Origin: Blastocatellia bacterium
Lineage (GTDB): Bacteria > Acidobacteriota > Blastocatellia > UBA7656 > JADIYM01
Direction of reading: 5' to 3'
Length of the DNA: 64,000 nucleotides
Assembly: GCA_044224215.1 (NCBI GenBank)
Contig: JBGAKX010000005.1
Coordinates: 7,350 to 71,349, forward strand
Shown: positions 22,437 to 50,328 of the stretch, piece by piece
How the letters are laid out: each line of letters starts with the position of its first letter
Position numbering within the stretch: position 1 is the stretch's first letter
Made by a program: the position numbers and the translations under genes
Notes under the pieces: generated by a model
The model's database searches: none
What the model saw: only the letters and a program-made list of their open reading frames with translations
What the model was told of the DNA's origin: nothing

Positions 22437-24440
22437 ATGCGTAACCTCATTCGTCCGTTACGGCTTGCTCTTATTCTCGGTGCGGTTGTAATCGCACTCT
22501 CCATTGTGTCAGTACACGGCCGTGCACAGCAGGGCGCCGTCGACCTCGACAAGGTTGCGGGTGCGAACCGAGCTCGAGCGGTGCGCGACGCGCTCGCCGT
22601 GCGAGTCGGGGGCATTGACAAGCTTCGCGTCCCATCGAGCGACGCTGCTCTTCCGCAACCGTTGCTCACGGACGGGGCGCCTGACCCTCGCTACCAGATC
22701 ACGGAGGCAAAGAGGTATCTGGGAAAGCTTCTCTTCTTCGACCCTGTCCGGTCCAACCGTATTCACCCGGAGTTCGGAGGCCTTCCGTCCACGGCGCGCA
22801 CCGGTTCGTGCGGGTCATGCCATCTCGGCGAGGTCGCTGGGAAGGCGGGACAAGTGATAAACCTCCACTTGGGGGGCGAGGGACGCGGATTCACCGATTC
22901 GGCCGGAGTGTTTCATGTCCGCAGGCGCATTCAACCGGGTCTGCAAGACGTTATCCCAACCGGCCAGCAGGAGATCATCAACGGCATCGTCGTCAAGGAC
23001 GGACGCTTTGATGCCGTCGACTCCGTTCCGCGTCTATCTCCGAGCATGATCGGTTTTGGATTCAACACACGCCTGCTGTTGAACGGCAAGGCCGGTGAGA
23101 CGGAGTCGGTTGACAATCCGCACCACCTTCCCGCGGCCGAGAATCTTTGCGAAATCGCATTCAACGTTCATCGAATGCTCGAGACCCAGCAATCGGCGAT
23201 TCAGGAATCGCCCGTCTACGTGAAGCTGTTTCACGACGCGTTTCCCGACGAGGCCGCCATCTACGAGCAGACCCTCGATATCAACGATCTGATCAACGAT
23301 GCAACGATCGAACGGGCTGTGGCGACCTTTCTTCGCACGGTCGTCACAAGGAACACGCCGTTTGACCGTTTCCTCGCTGGCGACGACAGTGCACTTACGA
23401 AGAGGCAGCTTAACGGTCTGAAGTTGTTTCTCAACGATACCGCGCACGGCGGGGCAAATTGCATCCAGTGCCACAGTGGTCCGATGCTCAACAAGCAGCT
23501 TGGTGACGAAGCGGGCGTGCTTGTCAACGAGAACTTCTTCAATGTCGGTGTAGGCGACCACCCGCTCCAGCAGCTCGGCGCCATCGCGCTCGAGGACCCG
23601 AACCACCACGATATCGGCCGCGGCGAGATCACGCTGCAATCGGAAGACAACTACAAGTTCCGGACGCTGACGCTGCGGCAGCTCAGGGATTCGGGTGGAC
23701 AGATGATGCATTCGGCGCTGTTCACTTCGACGCGCGAGGTCGTGAACTACTTCAACGCGGGTATACCCCAGGATGCTCTTGCCGTGGCCGCCGGCAATGT
23801 CACGCCGCTCTTTACGCACCCTCGCGGGCCCGGCTCTGAACCCGGGCTTGGGCTGACGCCGAGACAGATTGACGCTCTCGTCGATTTCCTCGACAACGGT
23901 CTCTATGATCCGGCATTCGCGCGCTTCGACCCGAACTCGTCGACGGATTCATTCGAGCTCAACGAGCGGGATCTGATCTATTCGGCGAACCGGCCCGAGC
24001 TTGTTGCATACGGCGCAGTCGACGGATTGATGCCGAGCGGACTCTGCCCGTCGAGCGACGATGGCCTGACCCGGCGCGACCGTGGGCTCGAGTTCCTCGA
24101 TGTGAGCCGACAGATCTTTGTCGGCGTGCGCGGGGTTGAGCGAGACGCCGCGCACAATATGGAGACGCATCACTTGTCGCTCACGAACATCGGAAGCAGC
24201 CCCATCGACACGCATCTCCTGATGTGCTTCATGAATCTGTCGCCTGGGGCGTCGGTTGTCGGCGCAGAAGGGTTTTCGGAGCACCTGCCGTCACCTGGTG
24301 TCCCGTACATGCGCGAATTCGTGCCGCACGGCGAGGTCGACCCCGGCGAGACGATGAATGTCGACGTCATATTCCGAACGAACTCAGCCGAGCAAGTGGG
24401 CTTTACGCTCGATTTCCTGAGCGGCCAGGGCAAGCCGTAG
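22437..24440 (+). CDS. Di-heme cytochrome c peroxidase (CCP/MauG) family protein with extended N-terminal region, secreted
   Basis: Two CxxCH motifs (CGSCH, CIQCH...GPM) in CCP-like spacing and order. The ATG at 22437 is preceded by AGGAG, followed by signal peptide MRNLIRPLRLALILGAVVIALSIVSVHGRAQQ. The ORF-track start at 22350 was rejected. Confidence 0.65.
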   Translation: MRNLIRPLRLALILGAVVIALSIVSVHGRAQQGAVDLDKVAGANRARAVRDALAVRVGGIDKLRVPSSDAALPQPLLTDGAPDPRYQITEAKRYLGKLLFFDPVRSNRIHPEFGGLPSTARTGSCGSCHLGEVAGKAGQVINLHLGGEGRGFTDSAGVFHVRRRIQPGLQDVIPTGQQEIINGIVVKDGRFDAVDSVPRLSPSMIGFGFNTRLLLNGKAGETESVDNPHHLPAAENLCEIAFNVHRMLETQQSAIQESPVYVKLFHDAFPDEAAIYEQTLDINDLINDATIERAVATFLRTVVTRNTPFDRFLAGDDSALTKRQLNGLKLFLNDTAHGGANCIQCHSGPMLNKQLGDEAGVLVNENFFNVGVGDHPLQQLGAIALEDPNHHDIGRGEITLQSEDNYKFRTLTLRQLRDSGGQMMHSALFTSTREVVNYFNAGIPQDALAVAAGNVTPLFTHPRGPGSEPGLGLTPRQIDALVDFLDNGLYDPAFARFDPNSSTDSFELNERDLIYSANRPELVAYGAVDGLMPSGLCPSSDDGLTRRDRGLEFLDVSRQIFVGVRGVERDAAHNMETHHLSLTNIGSSPIDTHLLMCFMNLSPGASVVGAEGFSEHLPSPGVPYMREFVPHGEVDPGETMNVDVIFRTNSAEQVGFTLDFLSGQGKP

Positions 24441-24546: not shown

Positions 24547-25902
24547 CTAGTCGTTCGAGTATTCGTCGAGCTTTCGGTAGAGCGTCTTCCGGTCGAGTCC
24601 GAGCTGCTCAGCTGCACGCGTCTTATTCCCGCCTGTATCGTCCAGCGTTTGCAGGATGTACTCTCGCTCGAGCTCCCGTAAGGAGAGGCTCCGTTCGCGT
24701 GCACGCGCCACAATGGCCGAAGCCATTCCGGTCGACCATATCCTCTCGGGCAGGTCCTCGGGCGAAAGGACTGCACCGCGCGCAAGAGCGACCGCACGCT
24801 GGACGGCGTTTTCGAGCTCGCGCACGTTGCCTGGCCACGAGTATGCGGTCAGAATCGCAAGTGTCGAAGGCGCCACGTCAAGCGGCGGCCGCCCTGCGGC
24901 CTCGCACACGCGCGTCAGAAAGTGCTCGACGAGCAATGGAATGTCGATCGGCCGCTCACGCAATGGCGGAACACGCACGTGGATGACGTTCAGCCTCCAG
25001 TAGAGGTCCTCGCGGAATTCACCGAGTCGCACCTGCTCATCGAGATCGCGGTTCGTCGCTGCGACGATGCGGACATCGACTTCACGCTCCCTGTCGGCGC
25101 CAACGCGACGAACCGCACCATCCTGCAACGCGCGAAGGAGCTTTGGCTGGAACCCGAGCGGGATGTCGCCGACCTCATCGAGGAACAAAGTCCCGCCATT
25201 CGCTGCCTCGAACAGCCCCGCGCGGGACTGACGAGCTCCTGTGAATGCCCCGCCTGTGTGCCCGAACAACTCCGATTCGATCAGATCTGCAGGTATGGCC
25301 GCACAATTGACAGGCACGAACGCACCACGCCGTTCGGACGTCTCATGGATGGCGCGCGCCACGAGTTCCTTACCGGTTCCCGACTCGCCCGTTATCAGGA
25401 TGGTACTCGTGCTGCGACCTGCCCGGTCGACGAGATCGAACAGTTCCCGCATTGTGCGTGATGCGCCGACGATGCAGGCCGGAGCGTGCGGAACCTCGCG
25501 GCGAAGGCGAGCCTGCTCTCGTTGCGGTGCGCTCGACTCGAGAGCCGCTTCTACTGCACCAAGCAGATCGCCAGTCTCGAACGGCTTGATGAGGTACTGG
25601 AATGCTCCGGACTTGACCATCTCGACGGCGTGCTCCACGGACCCAAAAGCGGTGATCGCTATGACCGGGACTTCAGGTCGAGTCTTCAACACTGCCGCGA
25701 GCACGTCGGACGCGGTCGCTCCGGGCATTCGCACGTCCGATACGATGAGGTCTATGTGCGTTTGTTGCTGGCCAATGCGCACCAGTGCGTCGGTTCCGTC
25801 AACCGCGACCATCGTGTCATAGCCCGATTCCTCGAGAACATCCACCAGCAGATCCCGCATATCGGCGTCGTCTTCAGCGACGAGCAACCGCGCCTTGCTC
25901 AC
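24547..25902 (-). CDS. Sigma-54-dependent Fis-family response regulator (NtrC-like: REC + AAA+ + HTH)
   Basis: REC domain (LLVAEDD...[11 protein letters not shown]). Walker [15 protein letters not shown] motif, and a C-terminal Fis-type HTH. Confidence 0.9.
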
Positions 25903-27391
25903 CTAATACCTCCTTATCCACGGACGGGCTCTTCGTATTGCTCTCCGCCGACCCTGCAAGCGGAATCTGGATCGTAAAGACTGCGCCCCCGGCAGAGGGG
26001 CGCGAGACAAGAATCCTGCCGCCGTGGTCCTCGACGACACGGCGCGAAACGCTGAGACCGAGTCCGGTGCCACGGCCGACGTCCTTCGTTGTAAAGAACG
26101 GTTCGAAAATGTGCTCGATGTGCTCCGGCAGAATGCCATGCCCGGTGTCTTCGATCCGCACGGCTGCAGAACCGGAATGCTCGGATACATCGACTTTGAG
26201 CGTTCCCCCGTCAGGCATCGCCTGGACAGCGTTCATGCATATGTTGAGGAGCACTTGCTGCAAAAGGTCGGCATCCGCGTCTACGACGACATGTCCCGCC
26301 GTGCTGAAATTGACGCTGATTCCAGCAGTTGATGTCTCGGTGCTGAGCAATTCGCAGACGCCCGAAGCGAGTGCGGAGAGGTCGACAGGTACGATCCGCA
26401 TCGAATACGGTCGGGCCAAATCGAGGAGCTGGCGGACGATTCGCACAATCCGATGAGTCTGGTTGCGAATGATAGTGAGGTTGCGCTGGCGCTGATCGAG
26501 CGGGGCGTCAGGTTTGGCAAGAAGTTGCTCGGCGCGGCCGTCGATCACATTCAGCGGCGCTCCCACCTCGTGAGCCACGCCCGCAGCCAGTCGGCCGACG
26601 AGCGCAAGTCGCTCGTTGTGGCGAAACTCGCGCTCGAGTGCGAGGCGCTCATCGGCCTCACGTGCAACCTCGAGTCGCTGTTCCTCGAGCCGACTCACCA
26701 TCCGGTTGAATTCGGCAGCAAGTTCGCCAAATTCGCTTCCCCACGCAGGAAGCGCCACGCGATGTGACAGGTCTCCACTCCCGAGGGCCCGCGCACCCGC
26801 AAGCAGCGATCGGATGGGACGCGCCACGTTCCGACGAGCGACAAAGTACACCACAATAAATATCGTCACGATGAGCAAAAAGGTCGTCGCAGCGACATTC
26901 AGCTGTGCTTGTGCGATATCGGCTTTCACGAACGTCAGAACTTCGATGATCTCAAATGCGCCGCGCCGTCCGGCTCCAAGATCGAGCGGCATCGTCACCG
27001 ACAGGAAGTCAACACCGTTGATCGTGCGAATTCGCTCGATCGTGGCACCCGTCTCGATGACCCTCTCAACATCTGGTGAGTTGCCAAATTCGCCTCCAGC
27101 AAGAGCACTGGGTGTCGCCTCCACATTCCCGTGCTCGTCGTAGAGAACCACGCCCTCGATCTTGAGATTCTCGCTCAGCCGATCGATGAGTCGTTTCGCA
27201 TCGTCAATCCGCCCAGCTCGGTAATCATTGTCGAGCGCGAGTTGCAGTGTTATCGCATGTGCCATCGCCTCGCTGCGCCGGTGCGACATGAGTGCCGAGG
27301 CCTGTCTGTGCACAAGAACATAGCCCGCCGCACCCATGATGGCGCCGACAGCGAGTGTGAGGACAATTACTAACCGCGTGCTTATGCTCAT
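25874..27391 (-). CDS. Sensor histidine kinase (periplasmic sensor, HAMP, HisKA, HATPase_c), cognate partner of the sigma-54 regulator
   Basis: Start ATG at 27391 ([22 protein letters not shown] helix). H-box [16 protein letters not shown] boxes ([22 protein letters not shown]). It overlaps the regulator gene by 29 nt. The ORF-track extension to 27673 was rejected. Confidence 0.8.
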
Positions 27392-27782
27392 GCCATTGCC
27401 GTTGCTCGGTATCACGGAGCAAGTTGGCTGCCATTCGGCGGAGCGGCGCTCGTTCGACCGGCCAACAACATGAAATGACAGCCGCGAGCAGCGCCCGAAC
27501 GTGTTCTGTGTCCTGCGTACCGTGGAATTATGCGACATCGTTGTCGCATTTCGCCACGGCATCCGGTTCGAGGTGCTCGCGCAGCGATACGTTGGTAGCC
27601 GAATGGATCCCCTGCGAACGCCGTATCCTGGCCTTGCGGAGGCAGGGCAGGCCGAACGGGCGCACGCGCACACCGGGTTACGATCAAGACCGTCGGCTCA
27701 TGCACTTGTTCTGCGCGATTCGACACGGTAGCGTTCGCTCGAGTTGAGCCTCGGCACTCGATTCGCAGGACTCACCGACACA

Positions 27783-29354
27783 ATGAGCGAAACGCACCAC
27801 GTTGTCATCGTCCTCATCGGATTGCTCCTCGTTGCCTCGGGCGTGGCAATGGCGACGAGGTGGCTCCGCGTTCCATATACGTTGCTTCTCGTCGTGGTCG
27901 GTCTTGTCATCTCACCGATGCACTTCTTGCCGGTCGTGCATATCTCACCTGATCTGATCCTCCTCGTTTTCCTGCCTGCACTCCTGTTCGAGGCGGCATG
28001 GAATCTGAAGCTCGATCACCTGCGTGCAAACCTCGTTCCCATTCTCACGCTGGCACTTGCCGGTGTCGTTGTGTCGGTGGGAGTCGTGGCCGTGGTCCTT
28101 CACTATGCTGCCGGACTCACGTATCCAACGGCGCTGCTTTTTGGCGCGATGATCTCGGCGACAGATCCCGTGTCGGTGCTTGCGATCTTCAAGAAGCTCA
28201 ACCTGCCGGCACGGCTGTCGAGCGTGGTCGAAGGAGAAAGCCTGTTCAACGACGGAACGGCGGTTGTGGTGTTTCGAATCATTCTCGGTGTAGTCCTTGG
28301 CGTGGTGTCCGATTCGGGTGTCGCTATCGCGTTTTCATCGGTTCGTGAATTCGTGCTCGTCGTCTTCGGTGGCCTTGCGATAGGCGCTGCCGTGGGAGTC
28401 GTGGCATCCACGCTGACGTCGAGATTCGAGGATTATCTGCTCGAGATCACGCTGACCACCGTCGCCGCATACGGTTCGTATTTCGCGGCAGAAACCATCG
28501 GCGTGTCGCCCGTGATCTCTGTACTGGTCGCAGGTCTTGTCATCGGCAACTACGGTCGACGCATCGGGATGTCGGCAACGACGCAGATTGCCGTGAACTC
28601 GTTCTGGGAGTATGCAGCCTTTGTTGTGAACTCGCTGGTGTTCCTTCTGATTGGGCTCGAGGTGCAGCTCTCGTCACTTGCGTCGGACGGGCTGGCGATC
28701 GCCTGCGGGATCGCGGCGATGCTCGCAGGACGAGCCGTGGCCGTTTACACGCTCATGCCGGTCGTCAACAGGTTTACGCAACCCGCACCATGGTCCTGGC
28801 AGCATGTGTTGTTCTGGGGCGGACTTCGGGGTTCGCTCTCGATCGCCCTCGCGTTGAGCCTTCCGCTTACGGTCGCCGACCGGCCCCTGCTCGTGACGAT
28901 GACCTTTGGGGCAGTTCTATTCAGCCTTCTCGCGCAGGGATTGACGATGCGGCCACTGCTGCGGCGTCTCGGTTTCACGAGTGTGGATCGAGGTTGCGAA
29001 GAGCTGGAATTGCTGCAGGCGGCGTTGCTGGTCGAGACGTCTGCGCGAGCGGAGCTTGAATCCCTGAGAGATCGTGGAGGTTTGACAGATACCCTCTATC
29101 GCAAACTTCAAGGCAGTCTCGCAGCTGCGCGCGACGAGCTTCATGCTCGACTCGCGGTACTCGACGTGGAGAACAGCGTGCTCGAGCGCGAACAGGAGCA
29201 GCGAATTCTCGACCACCTCGGCGACATACGGCGGGCACGCCTCGCTGAGCTTGTCCGTGAAGGACTTGTCGCTGAACGAACCTACGAACACCTGCGACGA
29301 CAGCTCGATGACGACATGGGCGAACGAAAGAACCAGAGTACCTCGGAACAGTGA
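27783..29354 (+). CDS. Na+/H+ antiporter, CPA1 (NhaP-type) family with C-terminal cytoplasmic regulatory domain
   Basis: About 12 TM helices with CPA1 motifs (FLPALLFEAAWNL, ATDPVSV). The start is taken at ATG 27783 (MSETHHVVIVLIGLLL). Confidence 0.85.
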   Translation: MSETHHVVIVLIGLLLVASGVAMATRWLRVPYTLLLVVVGLVISPMHFLPVVHISPDLILLVFLPALLFEAAWNLKLDHLRANLVPILTLALAGVVVSVGVVAVVLHYAAGLTYPTALLFGAMISATDPVSVLAIFKKLNLPARLSSVVEGESLFNDGTAVVVFRIILGVVLGVVSDSGVAIAFSSVREFVLVVFGGLAIGAAVGVVASTLTSRFEDYLLEITLTTVAAYGSYFAAETIGVSPVISVLVAGLVIGNYGRRIGMSATTQIAVNSFWEYAAFVVNSLVFLLIGLEVQLSSLASDGLAIACGIAAMLAGRAVAVYTLMPVVNRFTQPAPWSWQHVLFWGGLRGSLSIALALSLPLTVADRPLLVTMTFGAVLFSLLAQGLTMRPLLRRLGFTSVDRGCEELELLQAALLVETSARAELESLRDRGGLTDTLYRKLQGSLAAARDELHARLAVLDVENSVLEREQEQRILDHLGDIRRARLAELVREGLVAERTYEHLRRQLDDDMGERKNQSTSEQ

Positions 29355-29385: not shown

Positions 29386-29874
29386 TCAGAGCCTCTGCAT
29401 CGTGATCAGAACCATCGGGTTGTCTCCGCCCACGCGACTGTAGACGATGGAGTATCCTTCGTCCGGGCTCTCCAGGGTGCCCGACCCCGATCCGTCTTCC
29501 GCAAGCCGGATCGATGTCCCGAGAACCGCCTCGGGTGCCGGCGCTCCGCTGTCGTCCCCGAAGAATGTCGACACGATTGCTCGCGCGCGACCGTCGGCAG
29601 CGTAGTACACACGGATCCGCCTCGTAGCGGACAACTTGAAGAGCTCCAGTTCGTCATCCTTGAGATCGGACTTACCGATGAGCTTGCGAACCTCTTGAGA
29701 CGTCATTCCGAGCTGGATACCCCGGAACACCCCGGTCAGAATGCTGGAACGTTCCACCTGGATCTGGTCATTCTGTGTCGGCAGCGCTGCGAGCGCCGAA
29801 ACGTTGACCTGCAGGGCGATGAGTGCGAACGCTGCCAACCCGGCGATACTGGCGATCCTCATCCGTTGTTTCAT
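29386..29874 (-). CDS. Hypothetical secreted protein (signal peptide, 162 aa)
   Basis: Start ATG at 29874 gives MKQRMRIASIAGLAAFALIALQVNVSALA. No recognisable domain. The ORF-track upstream extension was rejected. Confidence 0.4.
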   Translation of the reverse strand: MKQRMRIASIAGLAAFALIALQVNVSALAALPTQNDQIQVERSSILTGVFRGIQLGMTSQEVRKLIGKSDLKDDELELFKLSATRRIRVYYAADGRARAIVSTFFGDDSGAPAPEAVLGTSIRLAEDGSGSGTLESPDEGYSIVYSRVGGDNPMVLITMQRL

Positions 29875-29888
29875 GACGTGTCCTCCGT

Positions 29889-30185
29889 TCACTCGCTCGC
29901 CAAGCGCGGATCGTCGCCCGTGTCCTCGTCTGAAGATGCCCAGTGGATATTGCGTGACTGCCGTGTTACGACCTCGGGTGTCGCGGCCTCGCGACGACGT
30001 CGTGAAAACGCCACCGGAGCAGCGTTCTTCGCGATGAACACGTGGCGACACGACCGGCAAATGAGCTGATCGCCCGGCCTGGCGTGACTCAGCCAGAATT
30101 GTGTGCACGATGGGCACTGGATGACGCGGACGGTGCTGGCGCCCTCGTTGGCAGCTGGTTTTATCGGAATTTTGTTACGAATCAT
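29889..30185 (-). CDS. Hypothetical zinc-ribbon protein (CPSC...CRSC), 98 aa
   Basis: C-x2-C-x18-C-x2-C (VIQCPSCTQ...LICRSCRH). It ends 15 nt upstream of the secreted-protein start. Low confidence. Confidence 0.3.
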   Translation of the reverse strand: MIRNKIPIKPAANEGASTVRVIQCPSCTQFWLSHARPGDQLICRSCRHVFIAKNAAPVAFSRRRREAATPEVVTRQSRNIHWASSDEDTGDDPRLASE

Positions 30186-30399: not shown

Positions 30400-32817
30400 C
30401 TACGTACGTTCGACGTGATCCTGCATGCCGCCGACTGAATTCGCGAGCGGCCGAAACTGCAGGGAGTAGAACATCTTCAGATATCGGTCTGTCTGCACTC
30501 TGTCCAAGTCGCTTGTGAATTTCCAGAATCCATAGATTCGAGAAAGCGTCATCAGCCGCTCCGCGTATCGCTTCCACGTGTATCGCTCTTCAACACGGGA
30601 AAGCGCCGACGACGAAACCTGTCGCCAGACTGATGGATCATCGGATGCCCGTTCCAGGAACTCCGCGATTCTGTTGGCAGCAGCCATTCCATCGTTCGGG
30701 TCGATGTGGAATCCCGACACGCCGTCGCGGATGATCTCGCGCGGACCACCGTACCGCGTCGCGAATGTGGGGAGACCTGACGACATCGCCTCGATGATCG
30801 TCAAACCGAAAGCCTCGAAGAGTGCGGGCTGTACAAAGACACCACGGGCGTCGGCGACGGTCCTGTAGAGTTCACCCGCAAGGTTGCGGTCGAGGCGGGC
30901 ACTCAGCCACCGCACCCCGCCATCGAGGTTGAATTGATCCATGAGAGCGTGCATCCGGTCGATCTCTGCCCGCTCCTCGCGGTCCGTCGACAGGTTCCGG
31001 TCGACGTGGCCGCCGATGATAAACAGGTTTGCGACACGCCGCAGACGCTCACTCATGGCGAACCACTCGACGAGCCCTGTCAGGTTCTTGACGCGATCGA
31101 GCCGCGCCATGGTGAAGACAAGGGTCTTGGCTCGATCTTCCAGCACGCCCCGAGAATCCGCGCGCTGACCACCGTAGACCATGTCTTCAATCTGTGACTC
31201 GAGCCCCTTGAGTCGCGAGTCGGAGTCAGCGTACGAGAAATAAACGTCCGGATCCGCTCCGGGTGAAACGATGTTGAACCTGGGGTCGAACACATCGATG
31301 CCGTCGACAACCCTGTAGAGCCCGGGCATCGTGTACGACTGGTAGCTCTCATACTGTCCAACGCTGTACTCGCCACCGGCGATCTCCTGGTACGTGCTCG
31401 TGATGATGAAGTCAGCCGCATTCATCGCGATCAGATCCGCCGTGTATTGACATGAAAAGTGGTACTTCGACTCGTGCTCTTGCCAGTAGATCGCCGACAG
31501 CAGGTACTTGGTCTTTTCGAGCGCGTGCGCAATGTTGCACTGCGTCACGCCAAGCCGACGGCTGAGCAGTGTCGCGACGAGATTGCCGTCCGAGTAGTTT
31601 CCAATGATGAGATCCGGTCGCCCTCTGAACTCGGCGACGACCTCCCGCTCGACCTCGGCGGCAAAACCCTCGAGAAAGGGCCAGATGTCAAAGCGCGAGA
31701 TCCACTGGCGTACGACCTCGCCGCTGTCGCTCCGGAAGGGAACGCGCAGAATCCATGAGTTGCTGCACCCGCGAATGCGCTCGAGTCGCTCGTCGCACGT
31801 TGTCTCTCCGGCATCGGGGATAAGGCGCGTGACAACAAGTATCGTAGGCTCAACCTCGACTCCCTGGACGTGCAATCGATCGCGCATCTCGCACTCGAGT
31901 GCTCGAACCTGGTCAAGAATGTAGACGACCTGACCGCCCGTGTCGGGCAACCCGAGAACATTGTCCTGCCCAAAGAAGCCGTGAGGCGACAGGATCAGGA
32001 TTCTCGAGATCATCGGAACCCGGGCGAGGAACGATTCGAGCGACATGGGCGACGGCGCCTCGAGGATGTCACGCAACAGGTTCATCGTGTCCATCGCTCG
32101 CCCAACCGTGTTCCCCCATCCTGCTGCAAATCCGATGCGAGCCATAGGTTCTGCGACATCTGACCATGGCGACTCGGGGACGAGCGGCTCGAGAAGTCCA
32201 ATCGCCTGACGCAGCGCCGTACGAAACGCGTCAACGCTTGAAAAACTCTTCGCAACGAGCAGCGTCTGGCCATCGATCGCGTGCAGTGTCAAGAATGTCA
32301 GGAGCCGCGCATGGCCCTCCTTCAGGTTCCTGAACATCTCGCTCGACAGTTGACGGTTCAGGAACTGGACACCGAGGCCGATCGACTCGGACTCCTGCAG
32401 TCGTGGATGGCCTTCCCTGAAGGGGCCAAAATCGACCTCGAGGGGCTCCGCTTTGGTGCGGCTCGGCGCGAGGTGCTCGCGGAAGGTGAGATACTCGGCG
32501 ACCGTCACCTCCTCGAGTACGAGGCTTTCGAGGTGAAACCTTACGTATTCCCAGCGCCCGATACGTTTGCGCACTGCCAGGTACGCCCACGGCTCACGAA
32601 ACGACCCGTCTTGCAGTTCACGCACGAACTGCGCGAGCGGCGAGGCTCGAAGTCCGTCGCCGTACTTCTGGCAGACATCTTCAAAGCCCTGCCGGAGATC
32701 AGACTGAAGCAGAAACGGCCGCTCCATACCGAAGTACGCGCGCATCAAGGCGTCGATGACGTTGCGATGCTCGCGCGCATACTCGATCAGATCATCACTC
32801 ACGGTTTTCCACGTCAA
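30400..32817 (-). CDS. Sucrose synthase (SuSy; UDP/ADP-glucose:fructose glucosyltransferase)
   Basis: About 805 aa, with the N-terminal SuSy-specific regulatory/EPBD region (TVAEYLTFREHLAP...). The GT-B catalytic part carries ...SPHGFFGQDNVLGLPDTGGQVVYILDQVRALE..., which is diagnostic of sucrose synthases. Confidence 0.85.
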   Translation of the reverse strand: MTWKTVSDDLIEYAREHRNVIDALMRAYFGMERPFLLQSDLRQGFEDVCQKYGDGLRASPLAQFVRELQDGSFREPWAYLAVRKRIGRWEYVRFHLESLVLEEVTVAEYLTFREHLAPSRTKAEPLEVDFGPFREGHPRLQESESIGLGVQFLNRQLSSEMFRNLKEGHARLLTFLTLHAIDGQTLLVAKSFSSVDAFRTALRQAIGLLEPLVPESPWSDVAEPMARIGFAAGWGNTVGRAMDTMNLLRDILEAPSPMSLESFLARVPMISRILILSPHGFFGQDNVLGLPDTGGQVVYILDQVRALECEMRDRLHVQGVEVEPTILVVTRLIPDAGETTCDERLERIRGCSNSWILRVPFRSDSGEVVRQWISRFDIWPFLEGFAAEVEREVVAEFRGRPDLIIGNYSDGNLVATLLSRRLGVTQCNIAHALEKTKYLLSAIYWQEHESKYHFSCQYTADLIAMNAADFIITSTYQEIAGGEYSVGQYESYQSYTMPGLYRVVDGIDVFDPRFNIVSPGADPDVYFSYADSDSRLKGLESQIEDMVYGGQRADSRGVLEDRAKTLVFTMARLDRVKNLTGLVEWFAMSERLRRVANLFIIGGHVDRNLSTDREERAEIDRMHALMDQFNLDGGVRWLSARLDRNLAGELYRTVADARGVFVQPALFEAFGLTIIEAMSSGLPTFATRYGGPREIIRDGVSGFHIDPNDGMAAANRIAEFLERASDDPSVWRQVSSSALSRVEERYTWKRYAERLMTLSRIYGFWKFTSDLDRVQTDRYLKMFYSLQFRPLANSVGGMQDHVERT

Positions 32818-32835
32818 CCGGCCACTTCAACCCGC

Positions 32836-35001
32836 TCAAGATCTTGGTGTGGCGGTCCTGGCAAGGTCCATCGGGGGCTTCGGAAGACCGCCTGCAAATT
32901 CATAGTGTGCGATTCCCTCGAGAATGCCGAGCGCCGCTCGCCCCTCGGCAAAGAATATGCGGTCGCGGCCCTCGAGCGCACGCAATTCAGAACTATAGCC
33001 GCCGACGACGACACCGCGAGTGTCGCCGACGAGCATTTCGATGTCGTTGCCCGAATCACCAGCAACGAGGAACGCATCGAGGGGGAGTCCCCATTTGTAT
33101 GCGAGATAACGGAGCGCGAGCCCCTTCGACGCGCGGATCGGGAGAACGTCGAGGTAGCGACCAGACGAGACGATCAAACGCGCCTGGAGCCCGCACGTCC
33201 GGAGCATTGCGGCAAGGTCGCGCACACTTGGCATTCGACCCGGGTCGATGTTGTAACTGAGCTTGAACTCGCGCTGATTCTCCGCAGCCTGGGGCTCGAG
33301 CCCCGGGAGCCCTCCAAGGGCGTTTTCAACGGCATCGCGTCGCCACCGGTGTCGGATGTGCTCCGCCCATCCGCCATCCTGTCGGAGGTCGGGACCGTAG
33401 TTGATCTCGCTGCCGACTGACGTAATCAGTACGTCCGGCGTGGGAACTCGCCAGCGGGCCAGCACTGCCGCGGCACTTTCAAGACTTCGGCCCGTGGCGA
33501 TGCCGAATGCCACCCGATCCGAACGATCAGCAATCCACTCGACGAGTTGGTCGAGCCCGTGCCGATTGCCTATCAACGTGTTGTCGATGTCAGATACCAG
33601 CGCGTTCGTGACGAGCGGCAATTGAGACGCGCTGTCGCGCTTGAGTGAGACACGGCCTCGACGGATGCGCTTTCGCTCACGCCGAAGGACCGCTTGCACG
33701 TTCTTCACATACTTCTCGACATGCGCGAACCACGTGTAGTGCGTTCGGACGCCTTTTACTCCGTTGCGCGACCATTGCCTCCATTGCTCCGGGTTCGAAA
33801 TGGCCGCCTCAAGAGCCTGTGCAATCGCCGACGGGTCGAGCGGATCAACAAGCAAACCGTTTCGACAGTTGTCGACGATGTCGCGCGGTCCGCCATCGTT
33901 CGTCGCGACGATCGGCAGACCGCTCGCCGCCGCCTCAATCAGCGTCAGTCCGAACGGCTCTGTAAGCGCGGGGTTCACGAAGACACCCCGCCGCCTCACG
34001 GCGAGCCGATAAATCCCCGCGAGTTCGCCCTGAGTGTGCTGCTTCGGGATCGCCACGCGTCCGTAGAGGTCATACCGATCGATGTCGAGCAGGAGATCCA
34101 TGTAGACGTCGCGCGGCGTCTCGTCGAGTTCACGGATGTCGACGCGGTTCCCGATGACAAGGACGAGGTTCGCCAGTTCGCGCAGACTCGGTGAACCGGC
34201 ATAGGCAGCTAGCAGGCGTCGAAGGTTTTTCCGGGCATCCGGTCTGCTGATCGCGAGAATCAATGGCTTGGCGGGCTCGCGCAGGAAACGATCGATGAGT
34301 CCCGCCGCGCGTTCCTCGGTCAGGTCGCGCTGCGGCGGCGAAAATCTCGTCACGTCCGTTCCCGGTGGTATCACAGCCGCTCGCCGACAGTCGAAATTTT
34401 CGTAGAGTCGATATTGATCCGTGATTTCCTGTCGCGTGCTCGTCACGACAAGCGACGCATGTGCGAGGACAGCCTCTTCGGCCGAGATTCGCCGTTCAAA
34501 GTTGTACTGACGATCAATGGTCGATTCGCGCCTTCCGGCTGCCACGAGCCGTGCCCGCTTGCATCGTCCGAGCGAATGGCCGGTGTGCACATGCGGTATG
34601 CCAAGCAGATACGAGAGTTTCCGAGCGACCTCGCCCGCGTCAGCGTAGTGCGAGTGGATAACGTCGGGGCGCCGTCCTCGCCGCCGGATGTGCAACAGGA
34701 TTCTGTCGACAAGTTGATCGTGATGCGGCCAGAGCAGTTCCTTGCGGATGTACCGACGTGGCCCGAACGGAAGGCGCCGGATCTGCGCGTTTGGTGCAAG
34801 CGCTTCAACAGGCACGGCGTAATCCGTTGAAACATTCGGGTCCTCGATGAGCCGGGTCACGAGCTCCACACGTTCGACGCCCGGATGTTGAGACAACGCA
34901 CGGGCAAGTTCCACGACGTAGGTCACCTGCCCGCCCGTGTCGGCATCGCGGCCAAGCTCAAGATCTGTGCCGCGAACAAGCCCGTGAAGGCTGAGCATCA
35001 T
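32836..35001 (-). CDS. Sucrose-phosphate synthase fused to a sucrose-phosphate phosphatase-like HAD domain (SPS/SPP)
   Basis: GT-B glucosyltransferase domain (LSLHGLVRG...DTGGQVTYVVELARAL) as in SPS. The C-terminal HAD domain carries DIDNTL (DxDxT) and GDSGND motifs as in SPP. Start ATG at 35001 (MMLSLHG). Confidence 0.85.
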   Translation of the reverse strand: MMLSLHGLVRGTDLELGRDADTGGQVTYVVELARALSQHPGVERVELVTRLIEDPNVSTDYAVPVEALAPNAQIRRLPFGPRRYIRKELLWPHHDQLVDRILLHIRRRGRRPDVIHSHYADAGEVARKLSYLLGIPHVHTGHSLGRCKRARLVAAGRRESTIDRQYNFERRISAEEAVLAHASLVVTSTRQEITDQYRLYENFDCRRAAVIPPGTDVTRFSPPQRDLTEERAAGLIDRFLREPAKPLILAISRPDARKNLRRLLAAYAGSPSLRELANLVLVIGNRVDIRELDETPRDVYMDLLLDIDRYDLYGRVAIPKQHTQGELAGIYRLAVRRRGVFVNPALTEPFGLTLIEAAASGLPIVATNDGGPRDIVDNCRNGLLVDPLDPSAIAQALEAAISNPEQWRQWSRNGVKGVRTHYTWFAHVEKYVKNVQAVLRRERKRIRRGRVSLKRDSASQLPLVTNALVSDIDNTLIGNRHGLDQLVEWIADRSDRVAFGIATGRSLESAAAVLARWRVPTPDVLITSVGSEINYGPDLRQDGGWAEHIRHRWRRDAVENALGGLPGLEPQAAENQREFKLSYNIDPGRMPSVRDLAAMLRTCGLQARLIVSSGRYLDVLPIRASKGLALRYLAYKWGLPLDAFLVAGDSGNDIEMLVGDTRGVVVGGYSSELRALEGRDRIFFAEGRAALGILEGIAHYEFAGGLPKPPMDLARTATPRS

Positions 35002-35552
35002 CACATCCAGTCGTCGCCCTTTCACGTGCTTTCCAACGACCTCGTTCGGTGTGAGGCACGACGTCGTGCTTCGCGACGAGCGGAATGTGGGAATGGACCC
35101 TCGCCAGCGCTGCGCTGGCATCCCGGCACGCCGAATCCGACATGCACGGCACGAACTCTGTTGATCCGTCCCGCGCTTTCTTGTTCATGCCCCAATTCAC
35201 TCTGGATGAGTGCAACTTGCGTTCCGCGCATCGAGCCGACGTGAAAGCAATGCGACACACGCGTGGACTCCGGCGCGCCGTGGCGAAATGGGGCAGGCCT
35301 GTCCCAAAACTCCACGACTGCGCTGTCTCGTGGGTCCGGCCCTACGGTGCTGTTGGACGATCCGGCACGTGCTCCAAGGATCGTCCGAGACCAGATCAAC
35401 GTCCTGCAACTTTCGATCCGACTCGCGGATCGGAACGCAGGCGCCGCACGAATCGCCACGACTTGTCCGTCAATGCGCAGACATTCGGTCACGGATGGTA
35501 CGGGGGTTGCGTAAGTCAGGACGGATTTCCAATTCCATGCCGCGCCAGTCGA

Positions 35553-36815
35553 ATGGACCGGATAGGCCGAACAGCCGTCGTTCTTCTCATGCTCACCTGG
35601 TTGGCGGGTATGGCCTGCTGGGGGCCGCCCGCACAACGGCGGCAGGTGCAAATAACCCTCTGGCACGGTATGGAATCGGGAATCAACAACAGGGTCCTCG
35701 CCGCCAAAATCGATCAGTTCAACCGCCTGCACAGCGATATCCTTCTCGAGGCACAGGTGTATGGCGCGGCCGATCAACTCGGGCCAAAGCTTGACGCCGC
35801 CGTCGCCGGCCGCACGCCTCCGGATTTGCTGTGGTGGGCACCGGCATACTTTCCGAAGTATGCCAAGGCAGGTGTGTTGAGGAGCGTGGACGACTTCATC
35901 GCTCAGGACCCGACTTTCTCAAAGGACGACATCTACGCGTCGCTCTGGGAACTGGGCACGATGGACGGCGAGGTGTACGCCACTCCGTTCTCCGCAAACA
36001 ACCTGGCGGTCTACTACAACAAGGCAATGTTCGCTCGCGCCGGGATCGATCGGCCTCCGCAGACGTGGGCCGAGTTTCGCGATGCAGCGGCACGACTCAC
36101 TCGCGACGGTGTTTCCGGATTCCAACTACCAATTGGCACGTCCGAGTGGACCGTCTGGACGTGGGAGTGTTTCCTCTGGCAGGCAGGTGGCGAACTGCTC
36201 ACATCGGGGAAACACGAGGCCGCGTTTGGCGCGCCCGCCGGAGTGGAGGCTCTCGATTTCTGGAAATCGCTTGTGAAGGACGGCTCAGCAGTGTTCTCGG
36301 AAGCGGACGCGGGATACAAGATGGATGACCTCCTTTCGGGCCGTGTTGCCATGGTCATTAACGGACCGTGGAACCTCGCACTCCTCAACGATCGGACTGA
36401 TGTCGACGTGGGCGTGTTCCCGCTCCCGCGCGATCGGCAAGCGGCAACGAATATCGGTGGCGAGTCGCTGTTTCTCTTCCGCTCGGATCCAGCGCGCGAG
36501 CACGCCGCGTGGGAATTTATGAAGTTTGTCATGAGCCCGGATTTTCAGGTGGACTGGGCGATCGCCACTGGATACCTCCCCGTGTCAAAGTCGGCCGCGA
36601 ACACCGAACGGTATCAGGCATTCCTTCGGGACAATCCGATCGTGAAGGTTCATAACGACCAGATGACCGTTGGCCGGGCGCGACCGTCCATTCCCGAATA
36701 CCCTGCAATGTCGGCAATACTCGGACGCCACATTGAGGCCGCGCTCTATGGAAAGTACTCCTCAGAGGAGGCGCTTTCGCGAGCCTCGGCAGATGTCGAT
36801 CGGCTGTTCCAATGA
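35553..36815 (+). CDS. ABC transporter substrate-binding protein, family 1 (sugar/oligosaccharide)
   Basis: Signal peptide/lipobox-like MDRIGRTAVVLLMLTWLAGMAC, then an SBP_bac_1-type fold. The ORF-track start at 35085 was rejected because it overlaps the SPS gene on the other strand. Confidence 0.85.
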   Translation: MDRIGRTAVVLLMLTWLAGMACWGPPAQRRQVQITLWHGMESGINNRVLAAKIDQFNRLHSDILLEAQVYGAADQLGPKLDAAVAGRTPPDLLWWAPAYFPKYAKAGVLRSVDDFIAQDPTFSKDDIYASLWELGTMDGEVYATPFSANNLAVYYNKAMFARAGIDRPPQTWAEFRDAAARLTRDGVSGFQLPIGTSEWTVWTWECFLWQAGGELLTSGKHEAAFGAPAGVEALDFWKSLVKDGSAVFSEADAGYKMDDLLSGRVAMVINGPWNLALLNDRTDVDVGVFPLPRDRQAATNIGGESLFLFRSDPAREHAAWEFMKFVMSPDFQVDWAIATGYLPVSKSAANTERYQAFLRDNPIVKVHNDQMTVGRARPSIPEYPAMSAILGRHIEAALYGKYSSEEALSRASADVDRLFQ

Positions 36816-37684
36816 CGCGCGGACACAGAGACGCCGTCGCAGCGTATCTCTTCGTGCTCCCGGCGGGGCTACTTCTCGGCATCTTCGTGATCTACCCGAT
36901 CTGCGAACTCTGCTACGTGAGTCTGCACGAGTGGAACATCCTCGACGACCGGATGACGTACGTCGCGACGGCCAACTACAGCGCCATATTCGCGGACGAC
37001 GGATTCTGGCAGGCGGTGGTGAACACGGTGACGTTCACCGCGGTTACCGTGCCGGTCGGAATGGCAATTTCGCTTGCGCTCGCATTGTTGCTCGATTCCC
37101 GTCTGAAGGCGTTTGGGATTCTGCGTACCGCACTCTTCACCCCGGTCGTTACGTCAAGCGTCGCGGCAGGAATCGTCTTTGTCTGGCTGCTGAACGACGA
37201 CCGTGGTCTCATCAATGGAACCCTTCGATGGTTTGGCGTCGATGGACCAAACTGGCTTCAGAGCGAGACGTGGGCCATGCCAGCCGTAATCTTGATGTGG
37301 CTCTGGAAGCAGGCGGGATACAACATGGTGCTGTTTCTTGCGGGTCTCCAGGCAATTCCCTCGAGCACGTACGAGGCCGCCGAAATTGACGGCGCCCGAC
37401 CCGGCTGGCAGACGTTCCGGCTCATCACGTGGCCGCAGCTCTGGCCTACGACGTTCTTCGTTCTCGTGGTTTCGGTCATCTTCGCGTTCCGGGCGTTCGA
37501 TCAGATGTACGTCATGACCCGCGGAGGTCCAGTCGGCTCGACAACCACGCTTGTGTACTACGTGTTCGACAAGGCGTTCAAGTTTGGCGACATGGGGCAG
37601 GCCGCTGCCGTCTCGACGCTGATGCTCGCGATGGTCATGGCGCTAACGTGGATGCAGTTCAGGTTTCGTCACCGCGAGGAATGA
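36812..37684 (+). CDS. ABC sugar transporter permease (MalF/UgpA-like)
   Basis: 6-TM BPD_transp_1 permease with an EAA loop (EAAEIDGA). Its start overlaps the SBP gene stop (ATGA). Confidence 0.85.
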   Translation: MTRGHRDAVAAYLFVLPAGLLLGIFVIYPICELCYVSLHEWNILDDRMTYVATANYSAIFADDGFWQAVVNTVTFTAVTVPVGMAISLALALLLDSRLKAFGILRTALFTPVVTSSVAAGIVFVWLLNDDRGLINGTLRWFGVDGPNWLQSETWAMPAVILMWLWKQAGYNMVLFLAGLQAIPSSTYEAAEIDGARPGWQTFRLITWPQLWPTTFFVLVVSVIFAFRAFDQMYVMTRGGPVGSTTTLVYYVFDKAFKFGDMGQAAAVSTLMLAMVMALTWMQFRFRHREE

Positions 37685-37687
37685 TCA

Positions 37688-38506
37688 ATGCCCGCTCGCA
37701 AGAGGATGTCCGTCTGGAGATGGCTCTCGGCGCTGCTCGTTGCCATCGTGTTCCTTGTCCCGATCTGGTCGATGCTCGTAACGTCGCTCGCGAACCCTAA
37801 CGAGGCTGGCACGGGAACAGGCCTCATCCCGCGGACGCTTCGACTCGAGAACTATTCCGAGGCCTGGCAGGCAACCAACTTCTCTCGCCAGTTCCTGAAC
37901 AGCCTGATTGTGGCACTCACCGTGACGGCAGGGCAGATCGTCACGTCGCTGATGGCTGGGTACGCGTTTGCGCGAATCCGATTCTTTGGCCGCGATACGC
38001 TCTTGATGGTGCTGCTGAGTACGGTCATCGTCCCGTTTCAGGTTCTTGTCATTCCTGTCTTCGTCATTCTTGCCAAGCTGAGCTGGATAAATTCATATTG
38101 GGCGCTCATCGTGCCGTCGCTTGCGAATGCCTTTGGTATCTTTCTGTTCACTCAGTTCTTTCAGACGATTCCATATGAACTCGAAGAGGCAGCGTACGTT
38201 GACGGCGCAAGCCGATGGCGTGTGCTCTGGCAGATCATGGTGCCGCTCGCGAGGCCAGCCATCGCAACGCTCTTCATGTTCACGTTCGTCGCCGAGTGGA
38301 ACGAGCTCTTCAAGCCGCTGGTGCTTACGAGCACGAACAACATGCGAACGGTTCAACTCGGCCTCACGGTCTTTCAGGAGCAGTTTCGAGTCGACTATGT
38401 TCACCTTATGGCCGCCGTCGTATTTGCAACGGTTCCAAGTGTCGTGCTGTTCTTCCTCGGACAGAAGCAGTTCGTGAGGGGTATCGCCACGACCGGGTTA
38501 CGGTGA
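37688..38506 (+). CDS. ABC sugar transporter permease (MalG/UgpE-like)
   Basis: BPD_transp_1 permease with an EAA loop (EEAAYVDGASRWRV). Confidence 0.85.
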   Translation: MPARKRMSVWRWLSALLVAIVFLVPIWSMLVTSLANPNEAGTGTGLIPRTLRLENYSEAWQATNFSRQFLNSLIVALTVTAGQIVTSLMAGYAFARIRFFGRDTLLMVLLSTVIVPFQVLVIPVFVILAKLSWINSYWALIVPSLANAFGIFLFTQFFQTIPYELEEAAYVDGASRWRVLWQIMVPLARPAIATLFMFTFVAEWNELFKPLVLTSTNNMRTVQLGLTVFQEQFRVDYVHLMAAVVFATVPSVVLFFLGQKQFVRGIATTGLR

Positions 38507-38553: not shown

Positions 38554-38796
38554 TTGCTCGTGGCGGGGGCGCGGTCGGATCACGTCGCAGAAATAGAAGT
38601 CGCGCCGACCGATGATGGCGAGCGATCGCTTGCAGAGCTTGCGATCGAAGGATGCGTGATCGCCGTCATCCGTCGCGATGACGGACTCGTCGTTCCAAAG
38701 GGTTCGACACGCGTTCATGCTGGAGACGTTCTGACGGTCGTCGGGAACGAGGAGGCGATTCGTGAGCTTCGCGGGCGTCTGGCTCTCTTGAACTGA
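38554..38796 (+). CDS. Stand-alone TrkA-C (RCK_C) domain protein, 80 aa, TTG start; possible gene remnant
   Basis: The segment ...IAVIRRDDGLVVPKGSTRVHAGDVLTVVGNEEAI... matches the TrkA_C fold. There is no N-terminal RCK_N domain. An in-frame stop lies at 38527. Confidence 0.35.
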   Translation: MLVAGARSDHVAEIEVAPTDDGERSLAELAIEGCVIAVIRRDDGLVVPKGSTRVHAGDVLTVVGNEEAIRELRGRLALLN

Positions 38797-48503: not shown

Positions 48504-48662
48504 TGGGCGGCGGCCTGCACCTGGCGTTCGCCTTGTTTTCATCGAGTCGCTTCGAATTGGATTGAATCTCACGCAGGCAACTGGTTCAGGACGTGCCGGC
48601 GTTCCGCAAGTCGCGAGGTTGGCGACGAGTCCGGAGAGCCGTGTCCTCGACACACTCAGACC

Positions 48663-50291: not shown

Positions 50292-50298
50292 CGCCATC

Positions 50299-50328
50299 AC
50301 ACGGGCCGTCCCCCAGGACGGCCCGTGT
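50299..50328 (+). terminator. Perfect 13-bp stem / 4-nt loop hairpin immediately after the tetraheme cytochrome gene
   Basis: ACACGGGCCGTCC-ccca-GGACGGCCCGTGT, 8 nt after the TAA stop. Seen directly. Confidence 0.55.

Follow-up and report, generated by a model that had tools for sequence, protein, structure and literature searches.

We identified two adjacent, co-directional genes, sps and then susy, on the minus strand of a 64-kb stretch of DNA (hereafter the window) from an uncultured soil-type Acidobacteriota of the Blastocatellia (Table 1). The first encodes a two-domain protein in which an SPS glycosyltransferase is fused to a sucrose-phosphatase-like domain, and the second encodes a sucrose synthase (SuSy). 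A sequence-only reading of this DNA had proposed a bifunctional SPS/SPP-like gene followed in the same direction by a SuSy gene, and both open reading frames were found where it had placed them.

Table 1. Features of the sps-susy locus and its flanks; positions are those of the window.
Feature	Position	Strand	Basis or detail
sps (two-domain SPS / sucrose-phosphatase-like protein, 721 aa)	32836..35001	-	ORF and translation, TIGR02472, TIGR02471
SPS glycosyltransferase (GT4, GT-B) domain	33694..35001	-	TIGR02472 over ORF residues 38-476
DTGGQ, SPS domain	34927-34941	-	translation
TGHSLG (catalytic His), SPS domain	34567-34584	-	translation
ISRPDARKN (Arg/Lys), SPS domain	34225-34251	-	translation
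EPFGLTLIE (E-X7-E), SPS domain	33934-33960	-	translation
Sucrose-phosphatase-like HAD-IIB domain	32896..33600	-	Pfam S6PP 265.8 bits, TIGR02471
DIDNT (HAD motif I)	33577-33591	-	translation
ATGRS (HAD motif II)	33484-33498	-	translation
RASKG (Lys), HAD domain	33121-33135	-	translation
GDSGND (HAD motif IV)	33043-33060	-	translation
sps-susy intergenic spacer	32803..32835	-	33 nt to GTG, 18 nt to alternative TTG at 32817
susy (sucrose synthase, 800 aa from GTG start)	30400..32802	-	TIGR02470, 4RBN, NCBI identity
SuSy-specific N-terminal region	32110..32805	-	SUS_N and SUS_EPBD
SUS_N	32476-32805	-	Pfam PF24861, 85 bits, over cut-off
SUS_EPBD	32110-32373	-	Pfam PF24862, 82.3 bits, over cut-off
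SuSy GT-B catalytic core	30649..32043	-	GT-B_Sucrose_synth (PF00862) 489 bits, Glycos_transf_1
DTGGQVVY, SuSy core	31921-31944	-	translation
IAHALE (His), SuSy core	31516-31533	-	translation
MARLDRVKN (Arg/Lys), SuSy core	31084-31110	-	translation
SARLDRNLAG (nucleotide-selectivity positions R636/A642), SuSy core	30874-30903	-	translation
EAFGLTIIE (E-X7-E), SuSy core	30790-30816	-	translation
Na+/H+ antiporter	27744-29354	+	TIGR00831 318.7 vs cut-off 279.6
CUT1-type sugar ABC importer (381-aa binding protein and two permeases)	35670-38506	divergent from sps	

The open frame of sps spans 32836..35121, or 761 aa when counted from the first ATG, and its start was placed at 35001, corresponding to Met41 ('MMLSLHG'), which is also the start used in the public gene call on identical DNA. 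The longer start, with the ATG at 35121, was rejected, as TIGR02472 starts to match at ORF residue 38, the public call gives 721 aa and the length of relatives is about 720 aa; relatives (roughly 710-735 aa) likewise have the two-domain make-up. For susy, an open reading frame from the TTG would cover 30400..32817 (805 aa). The GTG at 32802 is the likelier start, as it is with this codon that homologue N-termini and the 800-aa NCBI protein align. The 18-nt gap in the sequence-only reading is thus correct for the TTG, while the likely gap to the GTG is 33 nt. Within the spacer are an in-frame TGA and, ahead of the GTG, a weak Shine-Dalgarno-like element, GGA(A); no terminator-like site was found there. 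Around the pair, a search for sigma-70-like promoters found none, terminator-like hits did not exceed the number expected from shuffling, and Rfam gave no match near a gathering score. Since neither a promoter nor a terminator consensus turned up there, it is the short gap that points to an operon, and sps and susy are probably co-transcribed.

Measured by curated cut-offs, the NCBIfam scores of all three modules (SPS, phosphatase and SuSy) are far beyond chance. The SPS domain scored 678 with TIGR02472 (curated cut-off 576), covering model positions 1-439 of 439, and its closest solved structure is that of Halothermothrix orenii SPS (2R60). Residues H142, E348, E356, R171, R253 and R257 align with H158, E331, E339, R178, R249 and R253 of TeSPS, and the position of TeSPS R105 is occupied by Lys, likewise in H. 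orenii SPS. The roles of the TeSPS residues have been described, with the His and Glu (H158, E331) being essential (PMC7264703); the numbering of the TeSPS PDB chain is shifted by +3 relative to that paper.

The phosphatase-like domain scored 304 with TIGR02471 (curated cut-off 209.75). The stand-alone SPP model TIGR01485 gave 161.4, under its cut-off of 183.65, as is expected of the fused type. The nearest solved relative of this domain is Synechocystis SPP, and 1S2O was used as the alignment reference: D471, D473, T475, T503, K626 and D649...D653 align with D9, D11, T13, T41, K163, D186 and D190, all of which are kept. The earlier view that the SPP domain looks catalytically intact (DIDNT, GDSGND) was borne out, as both motifs were found and the nucleophilic Asp and other HAD motif residues are retained. 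The fused HAD domain therefore keeps every catalytic residue checked and is predicted to hydrolyse sucrose-6-phosphate.

SuSy scored 1155.7 with TIGR02470 (curated cut-off 810.4), its residues 20-795 matching model positions 3-781 of 784, and it is 100% identical to an 800-aa NCBI entry named 'sucrose synthase [Blastocatellia bacterium]'. Its top PDB match was 4RBN, the Nitrosomonas europaea SuSy (NeSuSy), with 1133 bits, followed by Arabidopsis SUS1 (AtSUS1) with 888 bits. The protein could have turned out to be a generic GT4 enzyme lacking the SuSy N-terminal domain; SUS_N and SUS_EPBD are both present and the sucrose-synthase equivalog model was passed. In the alignment, G302/G303, H438, R580, K585, E675 and E683 of AtSUS1 are matched column for column. 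Of these, H438, R580, K585 and E675 are catalytic or substrate-binding residues in the AtSUS1 structure. The roles of AtSUS1 G303, Q648 and N654 have been confirmed (PMC10465243). At the QN-motif positions the aligned residues are Arg and Ala, as in NeSuSy (R636/A642). The characterised bacterial SuSys prefer ADP, and the R636/A642 pair has been proposed as the cause (PMC10465243); judged by these two residues, the enzyme from the window is predicted to have a probable preference for ADP as well.

We also surveyed 80 related loci, 69 of which had enough upstream flank for the pairing to be evaluated. An SPS-SPP gene lies directly upstream of SuSy and in the same direction in 41 of these 69, and nearby in 18 more, so that SPS-SPP paired with SuSy is the standard arrangement. 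Among 60 fused SPS-SPP genes, DxDxT is intact in 48, none of which (0/48) has a separate SPP-like gene in its flanks, and motif I is degenerate in the other 12, with a separate SPP-like gene accompanying eight (8/12). The association between an intact motif I and the absence of a separate SPP-like gene gave a Fisher p = 2e-7, a value that ignores phylogenetic kinship. In the window, motif I is intact and the 64 kb contain no second SPP-like gene and no further copies of SPS or SuSy. These counts suggest a rule whereby a fused SPS with an intact DxDxT comes without a separate SPP gene, and one with a degenerate motif comes with it. Many such SPS proteins are labelled by NCBI only as 'HAD-IIB family hydrolase', and the DxDxT rule could improve the automatic naming of fused SPS proteins.

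A PfkB kinase gene, the presumed fructokinase, was found in 59 of the 80 related loci, as well as in the 71%-identical relatives (L083 and L084). A tblastn search of the whole 64-kb window, in which two PfkB proteins of L012 and L007 served as queries, found none (best E = 0.47). The locus differs in this absence from the canonical cluster of PfkB kinase, sps and susy, and because the kinase gene is missing, no route for recycling fructose is visible in the window.

Beyond SuSy, at about 1 kb and on the opposite strand, lies the Na+/H+ antiporter gene, and an unrelated 224-aa ORF separates the two. The ABC importer on the other side reaches no NCBIfam equivalog cut-off. Further ion transporters near the pair are a ClC channel and a TrkA_C protein, and a two-component system is also among the neighbours. 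No other sugar or glycogen genes came up when the remaining large ORFs of the window were scanned with Pfam. We considered the antiporter, the importer, the 224-aa ORF and the two-component system as conserved partners of the pair, and tblastn against the 80 related loci showed none of them to be consistent: the importer is near the pair in 2/80 and the antiporter in 0/80. The sequence-only reading had taken the nearby antiporter to fit a role of sucrose as an osmoprotectant. The antiporter is real, but its adjacency is found in none of the related loci and supports that role weakly; the ion-transport neighbours add little to the osmotic argument because they are not conserved with the pair.

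Taken together, the locus is very likely a two-gene module for sucrose synthesis and cleavage, of a type known from non-photosynthetic bacteria. The SPS domain would transfer glucose from NDP-glucose to fructose-6-phosphate, giving sucrose-6-phosphate, from which the fused HAD phosphatase would take off the phosphate. Owing to this removal, one polypeptide would make free sucrose irreversibly. SuSy would catalyse the reversible reaction sucrose + NDP <-> NDP-glucose + fructose, and would most likely convert sucrose from the store back into fructose and ADP-glucose, the latter for glycogen, once the sucrose is unneeded, because its Arg/Ala pair is the same as in the ADP-preferring Nitrosomonas enzyme. 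The sucrose may serve as a compatible solute or as a transient carbon store, and an osmoprotectant role is plausible. In N. europaea, the abundance of SuSy was 2.7-fold higher under high salinity (PMC6284046), and SPS, SuSy and fructokinase in a halophilic methanotroph have been read as a route by which sucrose is made and re-utilised (PMC4463540).

Some other readings of these genes need to be weighed against this one. SuSy might act synthetically, providing a second, phosphate-independent route from NDP-glucose and free fructose to sucrose. The reaction is reversible (PMC11046441), the authors who saw N. europaea SuSy rise with salinity read this as sucrose production (PMC6284046), and without a PfkB kinase in the window free fructose would stay available. 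However, the presumed fructokinase of most relatives takes fructose away and would thereby favour cleavage, and those bacterial enzymes that have been characterised are usually treated as a link from sucrose to ADP-glucose and glycogen (PMC4390843, PMC10465243), and we consider a synthetic role unlikely. It is also possible to see the standard three-gene cluster as having been remodelled in this Blastocatellia lineage, with the PfkB kinase gene lost and sps-susy placed back to back with the CUT1 importer in a neighbourhood of ion transporters (an Na+/H+ antiporter, a ClC channel and TrkA_C). Such an arrangement would amount to a lineage-specific osmoadaptation island, and its importer would take leaked sucrose back up, much as the compatible-solute re-uptake systems of cyanobacteria do. 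Based as it is on adjacency in one genome, this is a speculative proposal that we regard as rather unlikely. The importer could instead bring in external sucrose, for example from plants or cyanobacteria, for SuSy to cleave, with SPS-SPP being secondary. SuSy is reversible and its cleavage conserves the energy of the glycosidic bond, which would suit such a use, as would the position of a CUT1-type importer divergent from sps. Nevertheless, this importer reaches no NCBIfam equivalog cut-off, a similar one is near the pair in just two of the 80 related loci, a dedicated biosynthetic SPS-SPP lies immediately upstream of SuSy, and the PfkB kinase that catabolism would need is absent from the window, all of which makes a main role in using external sucrose very improbable.

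Two further readings concern the proteins themselves. In some two-domain SPS proteins the phosphatase domain does not function (PMC4390843), and the fused domain could, like that of Synechocystis SPS, be a relic without catalytic activity, with a separate SPP encoded elsewhere in a genome of which 64 kb are visible; motif I is degenerate in 12 of the 60 related fused genes. Against this, the matches to D9, D11, T13, T41, K163, D186 and D190 of Synechocystis SPP are all kept, and a separate SPP-like gene is lacking both from the window and from the flanks of all 48 relatives with an intact motif, and we therefore judge a relic improbable. Finally, both proteins weakly match many GT4 families, among them MshA, EpsE and GlgA, and might in principle be generic GT4 glycosyltransferases with exopolysaccharide, mycothiol or glycogen-type products that resemble sucrose enzymes. 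Matches to these and all other GT4 models were far under the cut-offs whereas the sucrose-specific equivalog models were passed, the N-terminal domains found only in SuSy are present, and SuSy shares 61-64% identity with the characterised Nitrosomonas-type enzymes besides its 1133-bit match to 4RBN. This reading was rejected as practically without probability.

The sucrose module favoured here most closely resembles that of N. europaea, whose locus is described as comprising PfkB kinase, SPS and SuSy and whose SuSy crystal structure is 4RBN (Wu et al. 2015 and Diricks et al. 2015, as cited in PMC7264703, PMC6284046 and PMC10465243). The two SuSys have the same length and four-domain make-up, the 4RBN match extends over essentially the full length, and the residues at the nucleotide-selectivity positions are the same. 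Nitrosospira and Nitrosomonas loci (L012, L053 and L003) likewise have a two-domain SPS with an intact DIDNT directly upstream and co-directional. In contrast, the host here is an Acidobacteriota (Blastocatellia) MAG and not a betaproteobacterial chemolithoautotroph, and the divergent sugar ABC importer takes the position upstream of sps where the PfkB kinase would be. A second cluster type, sps (degenerate motif) - spp - PfkB kinase - susy, was found in Gallionellaceae and various Gammaproteobacteria (L017, L041, L052, L057, L061 and L062). It has the same enzyme set and transcription direction, with SuSy last, but its motif I is DLDQN, DLDQS or DLDKS rather than DIDNT, and stand-alone SPP-like and PfkB kinase genes lie between its sps and susy, where the window has no intervening gene.

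For the fused protein, a useful precedent is the two-domain SPS of Synechococcus elongatus PCC 7942, which has conserved phosphatase residues and for which both activities have been shown (Martinez-Noel et al. 2013, as cited in PMC4390843). As in the window, a glycosyltransferase is fused to a phosphohydrolase with key catalytic residues and a separate SPP gene is lacking nearby. The cyanobacterial gene has no SuSy partner, cyanobacterial sucrose genes being mostly scattered (PMC4390843), and bifunctionality was measured for that enzyme whereas it is predicted for ours. Arabidopsis SUS1 (PDB 3S27-3S29) shares with our SuSy the four-domain architecture and the catalytic His/Arg/Lys/Glu, the match covering residues 11-798. 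Unlike the plant enzyme, in which Q648/N654 go with UDP preference, the residues here are Arg/Ala, as in ADP-preferring bacterial enzymes (PMC10465243).

SuSy relatives were found in no fewer than 585 species-representative genomes, spread over many phyla, and NCBI already lists the identical protein as a sucrose synthase; the earlier statement that SuSy is rare in bacteria was thus overstated. Related acidobacterial loci were found in Thermoanaerobaculia and Holophagales. In a rough neighbour-joining tree (midpoint rooted, no support values), the window falls among metagenome sequences, beside an Acidobacteriota group and outside the Proteobacteria. The GC content of the pair (0.60-0.62) is the same as that of its surroundings. 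Recent horizontal transfer was considered and finds no support in the GC content or in the tree position, beside Acidobacteriota and not inside Proteobacteria.

In conclusion, the gene pair is real but ordinary. Nitrifying and sulfur-oxidising bacteria were already known to have such a pair, and apart from correct annotation the present one is of little consequence. There is applied interest in bacterial SuSys for regenerating nucleotide sugars (PMC10465243), and the enzyme described here is another ADP-type candidate for biocatalysis, although nothing marks it as special. The pair adds Blastocatellia to the lineages with a module for sucrose synthesis and re-utilisation outside phototrophs and Proteobacteria, and its presence there bears on how soil bacteria may cope with drying and salinity.

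The first of two head-to-tail open reading frames matches several GT4 and GT-B families in Pfam at its N-terminus and S6PP at its C-terminus (265.8 bits), and the second matches SUS_N, SUS_EPBD, GT-B_Sucrose_synth (489 bits) and Glycos_transf_1. Against NCBI curated models, the first frame passed the cut-offs of TIGR02472 (bacterial sucrose-phosphate synthase (SPS) glycosyltransferase domain; 678 bits, cut-off 576) and TIGR02471 (SPS phosphatase-like domain; 304 bits, cut-off 209.75), and the second that of TIGR02470 (sucrose synthase equivalog; 1155.7 bits, cut-off 810.4) over approximately its full length. Since all three cut-offs were passed, the sequence-only reading of a gene fusing SPS with sucrose-phosphatase (SPP), followed by a sucrose synthase (SuSy) gene, is confirmed. 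Other glycosyltransferase families all scored far under their curated cut-offs for both frames, and SUS_N and SUS_EPBD identify in the second protein the SuSy N-terminal domains that a generic GT4 enzyme would lack. Thus, despite the GT4 matches of the first frame, the alternative that both proteins are generic GT4 enzymes is effectively excluded.

Coordinates of the sucrose genes and other features in the window
Feature	Position	Strand	Remarks
sps (fused SPS-SPP)	32836-35001	-	721 aa; open frame 32836-35121
susy (SuSy)	30400-32802	-	800 aa; open frame 30400-32817
CUT1-type sugar ABC importer	35670-38506	+	381-aa binding protein and two permeases; divergent from sps
Orphan 80-aa ORF	38554-38796	+	TrkA_C domain only; after importer
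224-aa ORF	29386-30060	-	directly downstream of susy; internal signal-peptide-like stretch MKQRMRIASIAGLAAFALIALQVNVSA
CPA1 Na+/H+ antiporter	27744-29354	+	past the 224-aa ORF; opposite strand to susy
Sigma-54-dependent two-component system	24547-27673	-	HAMP histidine kinase and NtrC-type regulator; after antiporter
Di-haem cytochrome c peroxidase-like protein	22350-24440	+	beyond antiporter
ClC chloride channel	20130-21992	+	CBS domains; beyond antiporter
Multihaem cytochrome	46029-48503	+	824 aa; MtrC/MtrF-like and class III cytochrome c domains
ResB-like cytochrome c biogenesis protein	50191-51927	+	close to multihaem cytochrome
Long ORF	51911-54472	-	853 aa; no Pfam match (E <= 1e-5)
Long ORF	47724-49748	-	674 aa; no Pfam match (E <= 1e-5)
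Long ORF	336-1637	-	433 aa; no Pfam match (E <= 1e-5)
Long ORF	14743-16014	+	423 aa; no Pfam match (E <= 1e-5)

The sps gene starts at ATG 35001, as originally read, and the upstream ATG 35121 was rejected, because the SPS family model begins at residue 38 of the frame, the gene call in the public record of identical DNA is 721 aa and relatives measure 710-735 aa. For susy, the 18-nt gap first reported holds for the earliest possible start, TTG 32817, which is disfavoured: the identical NCBI protein has 800 aa, and the N-termini of homologues and of the Nitrosomonas europaea enzyme align with GTG 32802, leaving 33 nt. With either start, we infer that the genes are close enough for co-transcription. 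Around the pair, no promoter-like site was found, terminator-like matches were no more frequent than expected from shuffling, and Rfam matches all stayed well short of a gathering score.

The structure closest to the window SPS is that of Halothermothrix orenii (2R60). Against Thermosynechococcus SPS (6KIH), its His142 and Glu348 align with His158 and Glu331, two residues at which alanine substitution abolishes activity (PMC7264703), and its Glu356, Arg171, Arg253 and Arg257 with Glu339, Arg178, Arg249 and Arg253. Thermosynechococcus Arg105 is replaced by Lys, as it is in H. orenii. The phosphatase domain, described earlier as intact-looking, retains every residue checked against Synechocystis SPP (1S2O): Asp9, the nucleophile whose loss would have spoken against the assignment, with Asp11 and Thr13 (DIDNT), Thr41 (ATGRS), Lys163, and Asp186 and Asp190 (GDSGND).

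An inactive phosphatase domain has precedent in the Synechocystis type of two-domain SPS, which does not carry both activities, unlike proteins of this build whose phosphatase residues are conserved (PMC4390843). As a side result of the locus survey, motif I was compared across 60 fused SPS-SPP genes from loci L002-L080 (related loci from a species-genome scan). DxDxT is kept in 48, none of which has a second SPP-like gene in its flanks. The motif is degenerate in the other 12 (DLDQN, DLDQS, DLDKS, ALDNV or NLDDV), and eight of these loci (L017, L041, L052, L057, L061, L062, L069 and L077) carry a stand-alone SPP-like gene, most often arranged sps-spp-kinase-susy. Fisher's exact test on this association gave p = 2e-7, though most degenerate cases apparently belong to one clade and so represent few independent events. 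The window combines an intact motif I with no second SPP-like gene in its 64 kb, which fits the published finding, and an inactive phosphatase is the less likely reading here.

The solved structure closest to the window SuSy is that of N. europaea (4RBN; 1133 bits, residues 6-795); Arabidopsis SUS1 ranks second (888 bits). Alignment with SUS1 shows that the DTGGQ loop, His438 (IAHALE), Arg580 and Lys585 (MARLDRVKN), and Glu675 and Glu683 (EAFGLTIIE) are all kept. The QN motif (Q648/N654) that marks UDP-preferring plant SuSys (PMC10465243) is instead Arg and Ala. Because N. europaea has the same residues, R636/A642, which have been suggested to let ADP fit (PMC10465243), the window enzyme is predicted to prefer ADP.

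SuSy had been called rare in bacteria. It is uncommon, but not a rarity: two conserved SuSy peptides, scanned against one genome for each of 185,579 species, gave at least 600 matched stretches and at least 585 confirmed relatives, with Beta- and Gammaproteobacteria, Desulfobacterota, Acidobacteriota, Planctomycetota, Calditrichota, Spirochaetota, Nitrospinota and candidate phyla among the matches listed. Of the best 80 of these loci, 69 extend 5 kb or more beyond SuSy on its upstream side. A two-domain SPS lies directly upstream and co-directional in 41 (gaps 0-230 nt), upstream beyond 400 nt in 12 (intervening genes in 10) and convergent downstream in six, and is absent from the flank in 10. 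A PfkB-family kinase, presumed to be a fructokinase, occurs in 59 of the 80, usually as kinase-sps-susy, and this gene set has been read as a pathway of sucrose synthesis and re-utilisation in non-photosynthetic bacteria (PMC4463540, PMC6284046, PMC7264703). Separately, a Spirochaetota MAG (L030) has two tandem SuSy genes (8001-10385 and 10539-12914; 56% and 50% identity with the window SuSy) with no SPS within 8 kb on either side.

NCBI already lists the window SuSy, at 100% identity, as 'sucrose synthase [Blastocatellia bacterium]' from MAG GCA_035429825.1, where a 22-kb contig has the same gene order. Next come metagenome proteins (71-81% identity), then proteins of Nitrosomonas, Nitrosospira, Sulfuriferula, Thiobacillus, Gallionellales and Thermoanaerobaculia (mostly 60-64%); the nearest named SPS relative is from an Acidobacteria MAG (77%). 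In a rough, midpoint-rooted neighbour-joining tree without support values, the window and its metagenome relatives adjoin an Acidobacteriota group (Thermoanaerobaculia, Holophagales), itself beside a Nitrosomonadales clade. Neither this tree nor GC content, which equals that of the surroundings, gave any sign of recent transfer.

The PfkB kinase gene is present in two 71%-identical relatives (L083 and L084) and absent across the whole window (tblastn, best E = 0.47). The importer beside sps might suggest a mainly catabolic pair coupled to it. This is less likely: it occurs near the pair in two of 80 related loci and matched substrate models (UgpB, MalE, GlcT/GlcU-type) far under their cut-offs. 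The importer has no ATPase gene. The 224-aa ORF, whose true start may be an internal Met, matched nothing in Pfam or NCBIfam and lacks relatives in the 80 loci, across which neither it nor the importer, antiporter or two-component pair is a consistent companion of the sucrose genes. The antiporter noted earlier is indeed present, but since it accompanies the pair in none of the 80 loci, its adjacency is weak evidence for an osmotic role. Better, if indirect, evidence is that N. europaea SuSy increases 2.7-fold when salinity is high (PMC6284046). Genes for glycogen, invertase or further sucrose enzymes are absent from the remainder of the window. Elsewhere, the multihaem cytochrome and ResB-like genes hint that this Acidobacteriota MAG may transfer electrons extracellularly or in the periplasm, and some of the four long ORFs may be spurious frames in high-GC DNA.

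In conclusion, the pair is real and was correctly interpreted; it is another instance of a known, widespread bacterial gene pair already recognised by public annotation, and only the absent kinase gene and the non-conserved transporter neighbourhood are unusual about it. SPS would move glucose from NDP-glucose onto fructose-6-phosphate, and the fused phosphatase would release free sucrose, making synthesis irreversible. SuSy would interconvert sucrose and, probably, ADP with ADP-glucose and fructose, and so connect stored sucrose with glycogen and central metabolism; that this reversible step runs in the synthetic direction is less likely. Many full-length two-domain SPS proteins (P0123, P0129, P0136, P0167, P0173 and others) are named only 'HAD-IIB family hydrolase' by NCBI, a systematic under-annotation, while UniRef and JGI give sucrose-phosphate synthase for the same or similar proteins. 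Bacterial sucrose clusters are of two types, with DxDxT and no separate SPP-like gene, or with a decayed motif I and, in eight of 12 cases, a stand-alone one, and this pattern could be used as an annotation rule.
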